From IMG/VR virus record IMGVR_UViG_3300024346_000005: a DNA stretch of 64,000 bases. One strand, written 5' to 3'. Shown here one piece after another: positions 16,946-64,000 of this stretch. Origin of the DNA: a virus. Lineage: Duplodnaviria; Caudoviricetes. Under the pieces are notes generated by a model, which was given only the letters and a program-made list of their open reading frames with translations, was not told the DNA's origin and searched no databases. How positions within the stretch are numbered: position 1 is the stretch's first letter; every line of letters starts with the position of its first letter. Made by a program: the position numbers and the translations under genes.

Positions 16946-18328
16946 ATGCAAATGTTCAACGCAGAATATTTGCAGGAGAAGTGGGCACCAATTCTGGATT
17001 ATTCCGGAATGGATCAGATCAAAGATGCACATCGCAGATCTGTAACCGCTATCCTGCTAGAAAACCAAGAGAGAGAACTCCGCGAAGAGCGTGACTTCCT
17101 CTACGAATCTCCAACCAACTCTGGCAATGCTGCTGGTGCTTCCGGTGGATTTGGTGGCAGTGCTCAAGGATTTAATGCTGGACCTACAGCTGGTTTCGAC
17201 CCCGTTCTGATTTCGTTAATCAGACGCTCGATGCCTAATCTGATTGCTTATGACCTGTGTGGCGTTCAACCAATGAACGGACCTACTGGACTCATCTTTG
17301 CGATGCGTTCACGTTACACCAGTCAGTCTGGAACTGAAGCATTCTTTGACGAAGCAGACACAAGATTCTCTGCTCAGAGTGCTACCAACAACCTTGTATC
17401 AGGTAACGTCGGTTTCGGTACTACTGCTGCTCAGTCAGGAACCAACCCAAGCGTTCTGAACGATACTCCAACCGCAGGAACCTACAACGTTTCCACCGGT
17501 ATGAATACTGGCGATTCAGAAGCACTTGGTGATGGCAATGCATTCAACGAAATGGCATTCTCAATCGAGAAAGTCACTGTTACTGCTAAGTCCCGTGCTC
17601 TGAAAGCTGAGTATTCACTTGAGCTCGCTCAAGACCTCAAGGCAATTCATGGTCTGAATGCTGAAGCAGAATTGGCAAACATTCTCTCAACTGAGATTCT
17701 TGCCGAAATCAACCGCGAAGTTATCAGAACCGTATACAAGATTGCTAAGCCTGGTGCTCAAGCAAACACTGCTACTGCTGGTACTTTTGACCTTGACGTT
17801 GACTCCAACGGTCGTTGGTCGGTTGAGAAGTTCAAGGGTCTTATCTTCCAAATCGAGCGCGATGCTAACGCTATCGCCCAGCAAACTCGTAGAGGAAAGG
17901 GTAATATGATTCTTTGCTCCGCAGACGTTGCTTCGGCACTTGCGATGGCAGGAGTTCTTGATTACACCCCAGCACTCAACGCAAACCTGAATGTTGATGA
18001 TACCGGCAATACCTTTGCTGGCGTTCTTCAAGGTAAGTATAAGGTTTATATTGACCCATATTCGGCAAACGTTGCTCCTAATCAGTTCTACGTTGTTGGT
18101 TATAAGGGTTCTTCTCCTTATGACGCAGGTCTATTCTACTGCCCTTATGTTCCTCTCCAAATGGTTCGTGCCGTTGGTGAGAACACCTTCCAACCAAAAA
18201 TCGGATTTAAGACCCGCTACGGCATGGTCGCCAATCCATTCGCTGAAGGTACAACCGTGGGTCAGGGTGCTCTTAATAACAACCTCAACGCTTATTACAG
18301 GAGAGTCAAAGTTGCAAATCTCATGTAA
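16946..18328 (+). CDS. gp23: Major capsid protein gp23
   Basis: GVQPMNGPTGLIFAMR, KSRALKAEYSLELAQDLKAIHG, YCPYVPL, QPKIGFKTRYG. Confidence 0.97.
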   Translation: MQMFNAEYLQEKWAPILDYSGMDQIKDAHRRSVTAILLENQERELREERDFLYESPTNSGNAAGASGGFGGSAQGFNAGPTAGFDPVLISLIRRSMPNLIAYDLCGVQPMNGPTGLIFAMRSRYTSQSGTEAFFDEADTRFSAQSATNNLVSGNVGFGTTAAQSGTNPSVLNDTPTAGTYNVSTGMNTGDSEALGDGNAFNEMAFSIEKVTVTAKSRALKAEYSLELAQDLKAIHGLNAEAELANILSTEILAEINREVIRTVYKIAKPGAQANTATAGTFDLDVDSNGRWSVEKFKGLIFQIERDANAIAQQTRRGKGNMILCSADVASALAMAGVLDYTPALNANLNVDDTGNTFAGVLQGKYKVYIDPYSANVAPNQFYVVGYKGSSPYDAGLFYCPYVPLQMVRAVGENTFQPKIGFKTRYGMVANPFAEGTTVGQGALNNNLNAYYRRVKVANLM

Positions 18329-18354
18329 GGTTATAAACCTAATGTGATTACTAG

Positions 18355-18362
18355 TATAAATA
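18355..18362 (+). promoter_or_regulatory. Late promoter abutting the gp23 terminator, upstream of an endonuclease gene
   Basis: Exact TATAAATA. Confidence 0.65.
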
Positions 18363-18388
18363 AGAGAGTCTTACGACTCTCTTTTTTT
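18363..18388 (+). terminator. Rho-independent terminator after gp23
   Basis: AGAGAGTC-ttac-GACTCTCT followed by a T run. Confidence 0.8.
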
Positions 18389-19099
18389 ATGCAACATTTT
18401 ATATACAAGACCACACATATTTCTGGAAAATATTATATCGGAAGGCACTCAACTAAAAATATAAATGATGGATATTTGGGCAGTGGAAGATGGGTGAAAT
18501 CAATAAAAGAAAAATCAAATCTTTCGAGAGAAATACTTGAATATTGTAATAATGATAAAGAACTAATAGAAAAAGAAACTCTTTTAATAGAACAAAATAT
18601 ATCAAATTCTTTATGTATGAACTGGAACGATAAAGGTGTCGGTTGGTCGTCAAGGTTTAATCCATCCAAACTAAATCCAAGTAGATTTGCTGGAGATAAA
18701 AATCCAATGAAAAATGAAGAAGTTAGAAATAAAGTAAGTGAGTCTGTAAAAAAAGGATATGCCGAAGGAAGAATTCATCCCCTACTAGGCAAAAAACATA
18801 CTGAAGAATCTAAAGAAAAAAATAGACAAAAGCATCTTGGTAAAAAACTTTCACCAGAAACTATTGAAAAAATAAGAAATGCCAATATAGGAAAAGAACA
18901 AACAGACTACCAAAAGCAAAAAGCAAGAGAGGCAAATGAAAAAACTTGGAAAATAATCACACCAGAGGGAGAAGAAGTCATTATAACAAATCTACGCCAA
19001 TATTCCTTAGAAAGAGGTTTAGACCCAGGAAATATGATGCATGTGGCAAGAGGAAGGCAAAAGCAACATAAGGGTTATAAAGTATCTAAAGTAACTTAA
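18389..19099 (+). CDS. Free-standing GIY-YIG (Seg-like) homing endonuclease with NUMOD3-like repeats
   Basis: FIYKTT..GKYYIGRHST..DGYLGSG; GKKHTEESKEK / GKKLSPETIEKIR repeats; start placed at the ATG after the terminator. Confidence 0.8.
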   Translation: MQHFIYKTTHISGKYYIGRHSTKNINDGYLGSGRWVKSIKEKSNLSREILEYCNNDKELIEKETLLIEQNISNSLCMNWNDKGVGWSSRFNPSKLNPSRFAGDKNPMKNEEVRNKVSESVKKGYAEGRIHPLLGKKHTEESKEKNRQKHLGKKLSPETIEKIRNANIGKEQTDYQKQKAREANEKTWKIITPEGEEVIITNLRQYSLERGLDPGNMMHVARGRQKQHKGYKVSKVT

Positions 19100-20159: not shown

Positions 20160-20167
20160 TATAAATA
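20160..20167 (+). promoter_or_regulatory. Late promoter of the endonuclease gene
   Basis: Exact TATAAATA. Confidence 0.7.
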
Positions 20168-20189: not shown

Positions 20190-20747
20190 ATGGCATATAT
20201 TTACAAAATAACCAATTTAAAAAATAATAAAATTTACATTGGTTTTACAATAAATGAAATTGAAGTAAGGTTAAGGAATCATATAAGAGCATCAAGACAA
20301 AATAAAGAAAGACATACATATCTCCATTCGGCAATTAGAAAGTATGGTGAAAAATTTTTTATAGTTGAAGAAATAGAGAGTGGTGATGATAAAAAACTTT
20401 TAAATGAAAGAGAAAAATATTGGATTGATTATTTTAAACCAGATTATAACCTAACAAAAGGTGGAGATGGTTGTTTAGGTTATAAGCATTTGGAGGGGAC
20501 AAAGTTAAAAATAACTGGGTGCCCAAAAGGAGCAAAACAAACTTTGAGTGAAGAACAAAGAGATATTCTTTCCAATAGAGCAAAAATGATGAATGAGAAG
20601 AAGGGAAAGGGATATAAATTAAATGTTAGTGAAGAAGAGAGACAAAGAAGGAGAGAAAATATGATTAGAATTAATAAAGAAAGAAAAGGTCAAAATACAA
20701 CTTTAAATAAAAAAAGAGATGATAAGGGTCGGTTTTTATCGAAATAA
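20190..20747 (+). CDS. Free-standing GIY-YIG homing endonuclease
   Basis: AYIYKITNLKNNKIYIGFT, EREKYWI, YNLTKGGDG; inserted between uvsY and uvsW. Confidence 0.85.
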   Translation: MAYIYKITNLKNNKIYIGFTINEIEVRLRNHIRASRQNKERHTYLHSAIRKYGEKFFIVEEIESGDDKKLLNEREKYWIDYFKPDYNLTKGGDGCLGYKHLEGTKLKITGCPKGAKQTLSEEQRDILSNRAKMMNEKKGKGYKLNVSEEERQRRRENMIRINKERKGQNTTLNKKRDDKGRFLSK

Positions 20748-61852: not shown

Positions 61853-61902
61853 CCACTTCTCAAACTGGCACACTTGACAGAACCTAAATAATCTCATATA
61901 AT
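61853..61902 (+). promoter_or_regulatory. Consensus sigma70 promoter with upstream CCACTT-N4-AACTGG motif
   Basis: Motif 61853-61868; TTGACA 61874-61879; 17 bp; TATAAT 61897-61902. Confidence 0.78.
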
Positions 61903-61960
61903 GCAAAGGAACCCACTCAAAAGGTGGGTTTTGTCATAATGAGTCTGTGATGTGACACTT

Positions 61961-62025
61961 AGAGCCGTGGAAGATGCCCTTCGAGAGAGGTGGTATACCC
62001 CTCTTCTATACGGATGCCGAATTCT
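61961..62025 (+). ncRNA. Candidate structured leader RNA
   Basis: GC-rich island; closing stem CCGU-GGAAGA/UCUUCU-AU-ACGG with internal hairpins, just upstream of the ATG. Confidence 0.35.
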
Positions 62026-62035
62026 ATTAAAATTA

Positions 62036-62686
62036 ATGCAACAATTTTTTACTGTAGCCTTTCCCCTTTTGGCAATGGTTACAACCAGCACGGCAACACT
62101 GCCCCAAGTGTTTCCTCCTCCACCCGTGAGTGGTCCGCCACCATTCTCTATTATTCAAGAGGATCCTACACGAAAGACAGCGACCAGAGAGGTTGCTCCA
62201 GTTAAACCAAAAGAAAAAAGACTAATTTGTAAAGGATGTAATACTAATGAAACGAAGACTGTAGAATTTCTACAGAATCGTGGAATTACTGACAAAAATG
62301 CCATAGCAACCATTATGGGCAATATCCGACAAGAATCTACCTTCACTCCTAATGTATGTGAGGGTGGTGCTATAGTGTCTTATGGTGCTTGTACAAGTGG
62401 TGGTTATGGTCTTATTCAATTTACCGATGCTCCAAGATATAATGGTCTTGGTAAGTTTGCTGCTCGTATTGGTGGAGACCCTTCCACACTTGATACTCAA
62501 CTTCGTTATATTATTACTGAACCACAATGGAGAGGTATTGAAGATAGATTGAAAGTCCCAGGAAAACCTATTGAATATTATATGCGTTTAGCATATACTT
62601 GGTTGGGGTGGGGACATAAAGGAGCAAGAACTGATTTTGCTTATAACTACTCAAATAAGTTAGTTCTAACTGTGATTGACTCCTAA
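62036..62686 (+). CDS. Phage tail-type lysozyme domain protein with signal peptide and Pro-rich linker
   Basis: AIATIMGNIRQES, GYGLIQFT, LDTQLRYI; N-term MQQFFTVAFPLLAMV. Confidence 0.75.
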   Translation: MQQFFTVAFPLLAMVTTSTATLPQVFPPPPVSGPPPFSIIQEDPTRKTATREVAPVKPKEKRLICKGCNTNETKTVEFLQNRGITDKNAIATIMGNIRQESTFTPNVCEGGAIVSYGACTSGGYGLIQFTDAPRYNGLGKFAARIGGDPSTLDTQLRYIITEPQWRGIEDRLKVPGKPIEYYMRLAYTWLGWGHKGARTDFAYNYSNKLVLTVIDS

Positions 62687-62694
62687 ATACATAT

Positions 62695-62750
62695 ACCTGA
62701 CTTGCTGACACTTTTCAGGTGAGATTGGAGTGCTTCGGCACTCCTTTCTT
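62695..62750 (+). ncRNA. Candidate 56-nt small RNA
   Basis: CTAAATA promoter variant at 62683-62689; hairpin ACCTGA/TCAGGT; terminator GGAGTGC-ttcg-GCACTCC-TTTCTT. Confidence 0.4.
62727..62750 (+). terminator. UUCG-loop terminator
   Basis: 7-bp perfect stem plus TTTCTT. Confidence 0.8.
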
Positions 62751-62751
62751 G

Positions 62752-62759
62752 TATAAATA
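62752..62759 (+). promoter_or_regulatory. Late promoter
   Basis: Exact TATAAATA. Confidence 0.65.
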
Positions 62760-62762
62760 ATA

Positions 62763-62817
62763 ATGTCAGCAAGAATGTACCGGCGTTGAATGGAAACGAG
62801 GTATGATTTATAAATAA
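62763..62817 (+). pseudogene. Possible deletion scar of an endonuclease gene
   Basis: Mini-ORF MSARMYRR in one frame; ECTGVEWKRGMIYK-stop in another. Confidence 0.3.
62809..62816 (+). promoter_or_regulatory. Late promoter
   Basis: Exact TATAAATA. Confidence 0.7.
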
Positions 62818-62835
62818 CTAAAAAGTATTCATAAA

Positions 62836-63765
62836 ATGGACGCACAAGAACTTCGCAATCTTCAAGAAGCATATATGGAAGTTTATGAACTTGATGAAGA
62901 TTGGAAACCTGTAAATGTGCCAAGAGTAAAAACTCGTATGGGAAATCTTGAAGGGAGATTGTCTTCAGTTTCTAATGATAGATTTTCCAGCAATACCCCA
63001 GAATATGCCAGATATCAAAGAACCGCAAATGTTGTCTCACAATCAACTGAAAATCCAAATAAACCTTTCCAAAAACCAACATTTGATCCAGGTGGACTGA
63101 AAATAAAACCAGGAGGCCGAGGTGTCACATTTTCTCCAGAAAGAAATTCACAATGGAAACCATTTTCATCTAGATTACCTACCAAAACTCCTGCTACAGT
63201 AACAAAACCATCTACACCATCATCCACAAAACCAAACCCTCGTAGTATTTCTGGTTCTAGTGCTCCTAGACCGGGAAGAGGATCTACATCAAATTGGATG
63301 ACAGATAGAATGGGTGAATTTACATCTGCGTTAAATAGATTATCAGATCCAAGAAAACCAAATTCAACCACAAAACCACAAGTAAAACCAACCAAAAGTT
63401 CAAGAGGTGGTGGTTCATCAGCACAAGGCGTTGGTTCTCCATCAGGAACTGGTAGATATCAAGTTGGTGGGGCGCAAGGACATGGTATTTCTGGAATAAA
63501 AATGGCCGATAGTTATGACCTCTACGACATCATTCTCTCACACCTTCTTGATGAGGGTTATGCCGAAACACCAGAAGCAGCAGAATCTATTATGGTGAAT
63601 ATGAGTGAAGAGTGGAGAGAGAGTATTTGTGAGGCAGAGATTGAACCCCCAAAAGAAAGAGTTGGTGCTTTGACGAATATTGATATTCCAATGTCCGAAA
63701 GAGAAGCAGCAAGACAAAGAACACTTGCAAAAGCAAAAGCAAAAAGAGAAAAAAACAAAAATTGA
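62836..63765 (+). CDS. EAY/EGY-module paralog family member 4 (309 aa, Pro/Ser/Thr/Lys-rich core)
   Basis: N-term NLQEAY; module DLYDIILSHLLDEGY..MSEEWRESICE at 63517-63633. Confidence 0.78.
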   Translation: MDAQELRNLQEAYMEVYELDEDWKPVNVPRVKTRMGNLEGRLSSVSNDRFSSNTPEYARYQRTANVVSQSTENPNKPFQKPTFDPGGLKIKPGGRGVTFSPERNSQWKPFSSRLPTKTPATVTKPSTPSSTKPNPRSISGSSAPRPGRGSTSNWMTDRMGEFTSALNRLSDPRKPNSTTKPQVKPTKSSRGGGSSAQGVGSPSGTGRYQVGGAQGHGISGIKMADSYDLYDIILSHLLDEGYAETPEAAESIMVNMSEEWRESICEAEIEPPKERVGALTNIDIPMSEREAARQRTLAKAKAKREKNKN

Positions 63766-63773
63766 ATAAATAT

Positions 63774-63802
63774 AGGAGGGCACTCATAACCCTCCTTTTT
63801 TT
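63774..63802 (+). terminator. Terminator
   Basis: AGGAGGG/CCCTCCT stem plus T run. Confidence 0.75.
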
Positions 63803-64000
63803 ATGTTCAATTTCAATTTCGGCAAGAAGAAACCTGATATTAAGCAATATGCAATTATAGGAGTCGTATTATCTTCTGTGATTGTAATACTCTCACAGTG
63901 CTCTAGTATTCCTAGCAATCAACTTTGGGATTTACTGGATGAGATACAAAGAAAATATTTTCCACAAACTATACTAAATGAGTTTATTATCAAAGATGAT
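63803..64000 (+). CDS. 5' part of a membrane-anchored protein, truncated by the window end
   Basis: MFNFNFGKKKPDIKQYAIIGVVLSSVIVILSQCSS...; open to the window end. Confidence 0.6.
   Translation, partial: MFNFNFGKKKPDIKQYAIIGVVLSSVIVILSQCSSIPSNQLWDLLDEIQRKYFPQTILNEFIIKDD

Follow-up and report, generated by a model that had tools for sequence, protein, structure and literature searches.

A homing endonuclease gene must be expressed enough to spread and not so much as to harm the genome that carries it. In bacteriophage T4 this balance is struck by hairpins that keep the ribosome site concealed up to the time when a late promoter circumvents them. At the T4 genes e, soc, 49 and I-TevI and at mobE of phage Aeh1, with T4 segB also implicated, RNA arriving from upstream sequesters the ribosome site and a nested late promoter lets the late RNA escape (PMC3014915). 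Several of the known masks with a nested late promoter belong to homing endonuclease genes (PMC3014915). Here we describe a module of ~95 nucleotides (nt) that begins at position 62,682 of a 64,000-nt stretch of viral DNA (hereafter the window) from a T4-like cyanophage, a 128.5-kb record in IMG/VR (IMGVR_UViG_3300024346_000005) estimated to be ~60% complete. We consider that the module is probably the 5' control unit of a free-standing homing endonuclease gene in T4-like cyanophages and that it was orphaned in the window by deletion of that gene.

A loop complementary to the 5' end and ribosome-binding region of an mRNA for a mobile-element nuclease or a toxic protein is a feature of the IS10 RNA-OUT/RNA-IN pair and of type I toxin-antitoxin systems. 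T4-like phages also carry PeSL cassettes, in which a promoter and a stem-loop or terminator stand together at the borders of variable genes (Arbiol 2010; Comeau 2014; PMC2839356, PMC4122927). The PeSLs carry early promoters of the sigma-70 type and have a proposed role in DNA shuffling (PMC4122927). In cyanophage S-PM2, the CfrI RNA is described as an opposite-strand antisense transcript of ~225 nt that spans the endonuclease gene and psbA (Millard 2010, cited in PMC2984593).

The module, its copies and the genes behind it

In the window the module consists of the following elements.

62682..62689, + strand: P1, the first late-promoter-like box, CCTAAATA here and NATAAATA in most copies, 5 nt before the hairpin base
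62695..62720, + strand: hairpin 1, with stem ACCTGA (62695-62700) / TCAGGT (62715-62720) and a 14-nt loop (62701-62714)
62701..62710, + strand: 5' arm CTTGCTGACA, the first 10 nt of the hairpin 1 loop, covarying with the 3' arm
62727..62750, + strand: intrinsic terminator, GGAGTGC-TTCG-GCACTCC (62727-62744) followed by TTTCTT, in agreement with a terminator scan
62752..62759, + strand: P2, the late-promoter box TATAAATA, between the two arms
62764..62773, + strand: 3' arm TGTCAGCAAG, starting 4 nt after P2, at about -1/+1 of the predicted late RNA

A first-pass annotation of the window had listed these elements and proposed that the loop and the downstream decamer form an antisense pair, or a pseudoknot in read-through RNA. 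Direct reading, the terminator scan and an inverted-repeat search located every element where that annotation had placed it. The 3' arm (62764-62773) is the exact reverse complement of 62701-62710, and the arm allele of the window is TGTCAGCAAGT. The core of P1, CTAAATA, occupies 62683-62689, and the TAA embedded in it (62684-62686) is the stop codon of the upstream open reading frame (ORF). The decamer does overlie an ATG at 62763, as annotated, but this ATG (62763-62765) opens a frame of just 8 codons (MSARMYRR*) and is no gene start; the next real gene starts at 62836.

Taken by itself, the 10-nt repeat is not beyond chance. The AT-rich window holds 14 distinct perfect inverted repeats of at least 10 nt with a gap of at most 100 nt, compared with 8.7 +/- 2.8 expected from first-order Markov simulations, so any significance can come only from conservation and compensatory change in related sequences. 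A scan of 62000-64000 against Rfam at permissive thresholds, a check that the annotation had suggested, gave no match to the module: the best overlapping hits scored 17-21 bits with E >=1, far under the gathering scores, and are chance hits.

The module was found to be widespread. The hairpin 17-mer ACCTGACTTGCTGACAC had 23 exact matches in IMG/VR, and 21 of the 23 were the ~95-nt module directly 3' of the stop codon of the same lysozyme-like gene, near base-for-base identical despite a diverged coding flank. In most of these lysozyme-linked contigs the second arm was followed by TTAGAGTAG, an ATG and an ORF starting MKHFYVYYSYEEYGRGYIGKRE or MYYTYAYLREDRTPYYVGKG. An nhmmer search with the collected loci then yielded more distant copies in other genomic contexts. 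A pattern search of IMG/VR that left the arms unspecified (ATAAATA-N6-CCTG-N15-18-CAGG-N26-50-TATAAATA) returned at least 120 stretches. The copy numbers given below (81, 95, 96, 121 and 136) are distinct copies among the matches listed and those of related searches, and are lower bounds. In all, at least 136 distinct copies were present in uncultured T4-like cyanophage contigs and in the cultured Synechococcus phage S-SRM01, with the order N[A/C]TAAATA, hairpin, terminator, TATAAATA and a stretch complementary to the hairpin loop.

The scaffold of the module is constant. N[A/C]TAAATA lay at the P1 offset in 126 of 136 distinct copies, including 17 of 17 that were found through motif-independent protein searches, and TATAAATA was present at the P2 position in the copies found without the motif, except for L151 (TATAAAAA) and the relic L112. 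The T4-like start spacing postulated in the annotation is conserved at both boxes: N[A/C]TAAATA is followed by 5 nt and a purine at the stem base, and TATAAATA by 4-5 nt and the arm. NATAAATA is the published late-promoter consensus of cyanomyoviruses (PMC2984593). The order arm-P2-arm was the same in all aligned copies, and a terminator was at its position in all copies, with varied stem sequence. The CCUG/CAGG core of hairpin 1 was near invariant, and the rare variants CUUG/CAAG, CCUU/AAGG and GUCUG/CGGAC retain pairing.

Against this scaffold the arms vary, and each loop variant was matched by its own partner: CTTGATGACA occurred with TGTCATCAAG, CTTGTTCGCA with TGCGAACAAG, GTTGGGTGCA with TGCACCCAAC, and TGTGGTTCGCA with TGCGAACCACA. 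In 86 of 95 distinct copies among the matches listed, 9-15 nt of the loop were perfectly Watson-Crick complementary to the sequence that starts 4-5 nt after TATAAATA. Tested without an alignment, 81 copies had a median longest complement of 11 nt to their own partner, compared with 4 nt for the partners of other copies and 4 nt for their own +40..+65 region. These 81 copies held at least 35 different arm sequences, with complementarity kept throughout. The sole consensus structure predicted by RNAalifold for 121 distinct copies was the long-range helix between the arms, with double compensatory changes at all eight predicted pairs; one pair, for example, was AU in 31 copies, UA in 29, CG in 19 and GC in 18. 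Counted directly in the same alignment, all ten arm pairs had changed on both sides, and 85.5% of cells were paired, G-U pairs among them. The covariation score was 0.364, compared with 0.166 in shuffles (none of 500 reached 0.364) and 0.09-0.14 when the partners were slid.

On this comparative evidence the two arms pair as RNA or single-stranded nucleic acid, and the pairing is under selection. Absence of conservation or covariation in related phages, which the annotation had named as a ground for refutation, is clearly not what was observed; the search for compensatory changes in orthologous loci was strongly positive, both in the doubly changed pairs and in the matched arm alleles. A chance inverted repeat beside an ordinary terminator and promoter, which the frequency of perfect 10-nt repeats in the AT-rich window (14 against 8.7 expected) might have suggested, is ruled out for practical purposes by the very extensive conservation and the compensatory changes seen in more than 120 distinct copies.

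The genes that follow the module identify its usual company. An ORF of at least 60 amino acids lay 3' of the module in 113 of 121 distinct copies. When eight representative ORFs were scanned against PHROGs, six matched homing endonuclease or HNH endonuclease families (phrog_314, phrog_655, phrog_953, phrog_10820 and others), the ORF of L166 matched families of unknown function only, and that of L226 matched the transposase family phrog_506 (E 9e-127). In this last locus (L226:3844-5151) the module precedes a 398-residue transposase with a TnpB/OrfB-like N terminus (MHLKAYKFRIYPNKEQ..) in place of a homing endonuclease. Pfam at E <=0.01 did not recognize the GIY-YIG or HNH domains of the nucleases and detected only the NUMOD3 motif, in two of the eight scanned ORFs and in one of these under the curated cut-off. 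Judged from these matches, what follows the module is almost always a free-standing gene for a homing endonuclease (GIY-YIG-like or HNH), and once the gene of a TnpB-like transposase. Because several nuclease families in many genomic contexts stand behind one and the same module, we regard it as a portable leader that has been reused by these families and once by the transposase gene.

Among isolates the module is rare. That of the window had no blastn match among 50,697 isolate phage records, and a different arm allele searched in isolate genomes matched S-SRM01 only; the module is thus essentially known from uncultured contigs. The S-SRM01 copy (NC_070963 192422-192531) has the P1 box AATAAATA and the arms AATGGGTGGTT and AACCACCCATT, and precedes a gene annotated in RefSeq as a homing endonuclease. 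The annotated start of this coding sequence (PQC13_gp297; L309, NC_070963.1 192466-193167) falls inside the terminator of the module, and the likely true start is the ATG after the Shine-Dalgarno-like AGAGTAG (L309 locus position 1599, MNYLKIYCNLIRKAE..). A full-text literature search found no description of the module, which says only that the texts searched contain none.

Masking in cis and pairing in trans

We think it rather probable that the primary mode of the module is a translational mask acting in cis. An intact copy comprises P1, a hairpin displaying a locus-specific arm of 10-15 nt, the terminator, P2, the complementary arm with which the late mRNA is predicted to begin, a Shine-Dalgarno sequence of the AGAG type and the ATG. 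RNA from upstream that passes the terminator would carry both arms; these would form a helix of 16-18 bp over positions -17 to -8, including the Shine-Dalgarno sequence, and the RNA would remain untranslated. RNA started at P2 would lack the 5' arm and would be translated. The module would in this way insulate the nuclease from transcription around its insertion site.

Predicted folds of 96 copies are consistent with such a mask. The late mRNA was taken as the RNA started 6 nt after TATAAATA, and the read-through RNA as one starting at or before the hairpin. The unpaired probability of positions -17..-8 was 0.0-0.35 in read-through RNA compared with 0.47-0.80 in late mRNA. Averaging over -12..+3 instead gave only a modest difference (0.52 compared with 0.42 and 0.36), and it was the per-position profile that located the mask at -17..-8. 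In L168, where the 57-nt P1-to-terminator segment of the window stands before an intact gene, a helix from ACCUGA to UUAGAGU replaces the small hairpin in the minimum-free-energy structure (-49.3 kcal/mol, z = -6.45). The read-through RNA of the window itself is also predicted to form the arm helix, with no gene start adjoining. Intact relatives are thus predicted to have a helix over the Shine-Dalgarno sequence, and in the window the late promoter does lie 3' of the 5' strand. Of the two modes that the annotation had offered, pairing in read-through RNA is the better supported one; the structure it had in mind, a pseudoknot, is not what is predicted, since the small hairpin gives way to the 16-18 bp helix, which extends over the Shine-Dalgarno region.

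Several points weigh against a mask in cis. In the predicted folds of the 96 copies the AUG and positions -7..+5 are unmasked. A cis model does not account for the constant 5 nt between P1 and the hairpin, seen in nearly all copies whatever their genomic context, or for the placing of the arm in a hairpin loop. Nor is P1 a duplicate of the target's own promoter (see below). With an efficient terminator between the arms, read-through RNA available for masking would be scarce, and promoter activity, termination efficiency and translational effect are what we infer in every copy.

The conserved P1 leads to a second reading, which we hold to be possible though less likely, namely that P1 is a late promoter for a ~56-nt RNA of two hairpins whose loop pairs in trans with the 5' end of the P2-started nuclease mRNA. 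Pairing may spread through a CCUGA:UUAGAG extension over the Shine-Dalgarno sequence, throttling or stabilizing the nuclease mRNA, and may act alongside the cis mask; a cis mask and a functional trans-acting RNA are not mutually exclusive. Firing of P1 would necessarily yield a two-hairpin RNA of 48-74 nt. That P1 may fire is suggested by the recurrence of the box at the expected offset (126 of 136 copies; 17 of 17 in the motif-independent set), by the purine that lies 6 nt downstream as it does at P2, and by the identity of NATAAATA with the published cyanomyovirus consensus (PMC2984593). The predicted RNAs (48-74 nt, median 56) fold as hairpin 1 plus the terminator hairpin, that of the window having an energy of -23.7 kcal/mol (z = -4.35), and their duplexes with the 30 nt at the start of the late mRNA have a median energy of -22.5 kcal/mol. 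The stem of hairpin 1 has been kept through rare compensatory variants, the terminator follows directly after it, and nearly every copy has its 3' arm starting at about -1/+1 of the late RNA.

We considered a different origin for P1, as a duplicate of the target's late promoter in a promoter-bounded cassette, and rejected it: only 11 of 95 endonuclease ORFs end in NATAAATA. Many endonuclease ORF ends run instead into sigma-70-like promoters. At L189, L201 and L208 the endonuclease stop codon lies inside the -35 box of the next gene's sigma-70-like promoter (..TTGAC..N17..TATAAT), and cassettes of this type are wedged exactly between the end of one gene and the promoter of its neighbor.

Other observations weigh against pairing in trans. 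Two positions of the window's P1, CCTAAATA, do not agree with TATAAATA. When one RNA contains both arms, predicted folds strongly favor the intramolecular helix, and covariation cannot separate pairing in cis from pairing in trans. No trans-acting small RNA had been functionally characterized in T4 according to a 2010 review (PMC3014915). All nine contigs with two copies carry different arm alleles, but ~95% of such contigs would be expected to do so by chance from the allele frequencies, so these contigs give no evidence of selection for orthogonality of the arms.

The compact antisense pair that the annotation had proposed as silencing the downstream gene therefore stands in part: the loop-to-5'-end pairing is selected, as its covariation indicates, but in the window there is no gene at the decamer, the endonuclease having been deleted. 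Were the RNA to act in trans, the copy in the window would be an orphan small-RNA gene that is still transcribed, with the control encoded on the target's own strand, a view to which we give limited credence. Among T4-like phages it would then be the first regulatory RNA linked to homing endonucleases that acts in trans; and each cyanophage homing endonuclease cassette might, though we doubt it, encode its own ~56-nt late small RNA with a locus-specific loop for the cognate mRNA. The module provides a specific candidate small regulatory RNA of T4-like phages that is testable in cultured S-SRM01, and it offers a natural, heavily covarying RNA-RNA pair for studying how mobile genes insulate themselves from the context of their insertion.

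Loss of the endonuclease gene and the setting of the module

The surroundings of the module in the window contain the following features.

61874..61902, + strand: sigma-70-type promoter consensus TTGACA-17-TATAAT, 12/12 matches (a consensus match only), 5' of the lysozyme-like gene
61952..62686, + strand: upstream ORF for a tail lysozyme-like virion protein, Pfam PF18013 Phage_lysozyme2, E 2.6e-16
62774..62817, + strand: remnant of the 3' end of a homing endonuclease gene, of which 62782-62817 reads GVEWKRGMIYK*
62809..62816, + strand: P3, TATAAATA, the native late promoter of the next gene, overlapping the stop codon of the remnant
62836..63765, + strand: next real gene, 309 amino acids, no Pfam match; phrog_3708, of unknown function

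The remnant was recognized by comparison with L087, a contig whose lysozyme-like protein is 96% identical to that of the window and whose endonuclease ORF is intact. Positions 62761-62835 of the window align with the 3' end of that ORF (..CQQECPGVEWKRGRVYK*), with AATGCCAACAAG in L087 where the window has the arm AATGTCAGCAAG. L087 reads ..AATGCCAACAAGAATGTCCTGGTGTTGAATGG..TTTATAAATAA, and the window reads AATGTCAGCAAG/AATGTACCGGCGTTGAATGG..TTTATAAATAA, where the slash marks the deletion junction directly after CAAG at 62773. According to this alignment, the deletion that removed the endonuclease gene ran from the 3' arm to a sequence resembling it at 10 of 12 positions close to the ORF end, and spared the last codons. 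In the closest relative, L086 (97% identical), the gene is present with a 44-nt frameshifting deletion that removes the GRGYIGKRE motif, and in L171 it was lost by a different, independent deletion.

As far as the sequence allows it to be read, the module of the window is the leftover of a deleted homing endonuclease gene and has nothing to control. A protein-coding gene follows the module in its relatives (113 of 121), whereas in the window there is the 8-codon frame only. In the 128.5-kb record, which represents ~60% of the genome, there was no second copy of the module, no other leader with the target sequence GTCAGCAAG and no other target of the loop. RNA from P2 now crosses the 44-nt remnant into the next gene, and the pairing in the window is therefore probably without remaining function. 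A recent loss would account for the arm, terminator and promoters that are still intact. Invasion, decay and loss make up the textbook life cycle of a homing endonuclease gene, and the locus gives a snapshot of its end, with a decayed gene in the nearest relative, a deleted gene here and the control module left in place.

The part taken by the 3' arm in this deletion, as one side of a short repeat, also bears on a role at the level of DNA, by which the inverted repeat and the composite terminator and promoter would serve recombination or cassette mobility and not RNA control. The module moves among many genomic contexts together with nuclease genes, and in T4-like phages a part in shuffling has been proposed for composite promoter-terminator motifs (PMC4122927). 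We nevertheless consider such a role very improbable. The arms are fixed in position relative to two promoter boxes, a terminator and a Shine-Dalgarno sequence, with the helix extending over AGAG; the G-U pairs among the arm pairs fit pairing of RNA and not of DNA; and arms of 10-15 bp that lie ~50 bp apart are poor cruciform formers.

The nearest named relatives of the phage are the freshwater Synechococcus phages S-SRM01, DSL-LC02 and DSL-LC03. Homologs of the upstream gene are annotated as "tail tip lysozyme" in DSL-LC03 and as "virion structural protein" in DSL-LC02. In both of these phages the lysozyme-like gene is followed directly by a terminator and a gene starting MFNFNFGKKK, which in the window starts at 63803; positions 62687-63770, comprising the module and the 309-residue ORF, are therefore extra relative to them. 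The sigma-70 consensus at 61874-61902, a perfect one, precedes a tail-lysozyme-like gene that would be expected to be late. To judge from its match to the consensus, it is a possible source of early RNA entering the module.

The 309-residue gene (62836..63765) is not the target of the module. P3, its leader and the start of the gene through about codon 8 (window 62806-62860, TTTATAAATAACTAAAAAGTATTCATAAAATGGACGCACAAGAACTTCG) have 88-98% DNA identity in dozens of otherwise divergent viral contigs. The same conserved gene start occupies the matching place in L010, L028, L029, L035-L040, L053 and others. Conservation in the 309-residue protein is confined to ~20 residues at the N terminus and ~50 at the C terminus, around a hypervariable, low-complexity middle.

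The window has two further endonuclease-like genes (18390-19099 and 20190-20747), whose upstream regions differ from the module. The first, a GIY-YIG-like gene (MQHFIYKTTHISGKYYIGRHS.., ending at 19099), is directly 3' of a major-capsid-like gene (16946-18328). Here TATAAATA at 18354-18361 abuts a terminator hairpin, AGAGAGTC-TTAC-GACTCTCT (window 18354-18392), and the nuclease ATG comes directly after the T-run. RNA from this box would start inside the 5' strand of the terminator and could escape termination into the nuclease gene, a different way of nesting a late promoter in structure. The second, also GIY-YIG-like (MAYIYKITNLKNNKIYIGFT.., 20190-20747), lies behind TATAAATA at 20160-20167 without the module of arms and terminator.

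Comparison with known systems

The module resembles the PeSLs in being a short portable regulatory cassette that combines a promoter with a stem-loop or terminator. Its promoters are, however, late-type (N)ATAAATA boxes, and the early promoter that marks a PeSL is absent. PeSLs have not been described with a leader-complementary arm or with a link to homing endonucleases or cyanophages, and the terms "cyanophage" and "late promoter" have 0 occurrences in PMC4122927. Like CfrI, the module is a candidate non-coding RNA tied to a cyanophage homing endonuclease gene; it has no similarity to CfrI in sequence or architecture.

With IS10 RNA-OUT/RNA-IN the module shares the geometry of a loop facing a 5' end, and pairing could likewise spread from the loop into the stem. 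As in antisense RNAs of this kind, the terminator is predicted to give a discrete short RNA (48-74 nt) and the complementarity of the loop is selected. A promoter of its own may be provided by the conserved N[A/C]TAAATA box at fixed spacing, which fits NATAAATA and reads CCTAAATA in the window. In contrast to IS10 and the type I systems, the candidate RNA lies on the strand of its target, in tandem upstream of it and with no opposite-strand overlap, and the complementarity is limited to 10-15 nt.

The closest likeness is to the masks of the T4 type. As in these, the 5' strand of the module is predicted to fold onto the ribosome-binding region, and the late promoter TATAAATA lies 3' of that strand. 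The differences lie in how the parts are arranged. The two strands of the module are ~50 nt apart, with a full intrinsic terminator and a promoter between them, and the 5' strand sits in a hairpin loop of its own behind a second late-promoter-like box. The paired segment is hypervariable (at least 35 alleles) on a constant scaffold, the whole is portable between endonuclease families and insertion sites, and the AUG is predicted to be unpaired. The module family is thus a variation on a known type of control, and the copy in the window an orphaned remnant of it. In the cyanophages the logic of the T4 mask would be packed into a movable unit of ~100 nt that includes a terminator of its own, a pair of promoter boxes and an "address" segment that can be exchanged.

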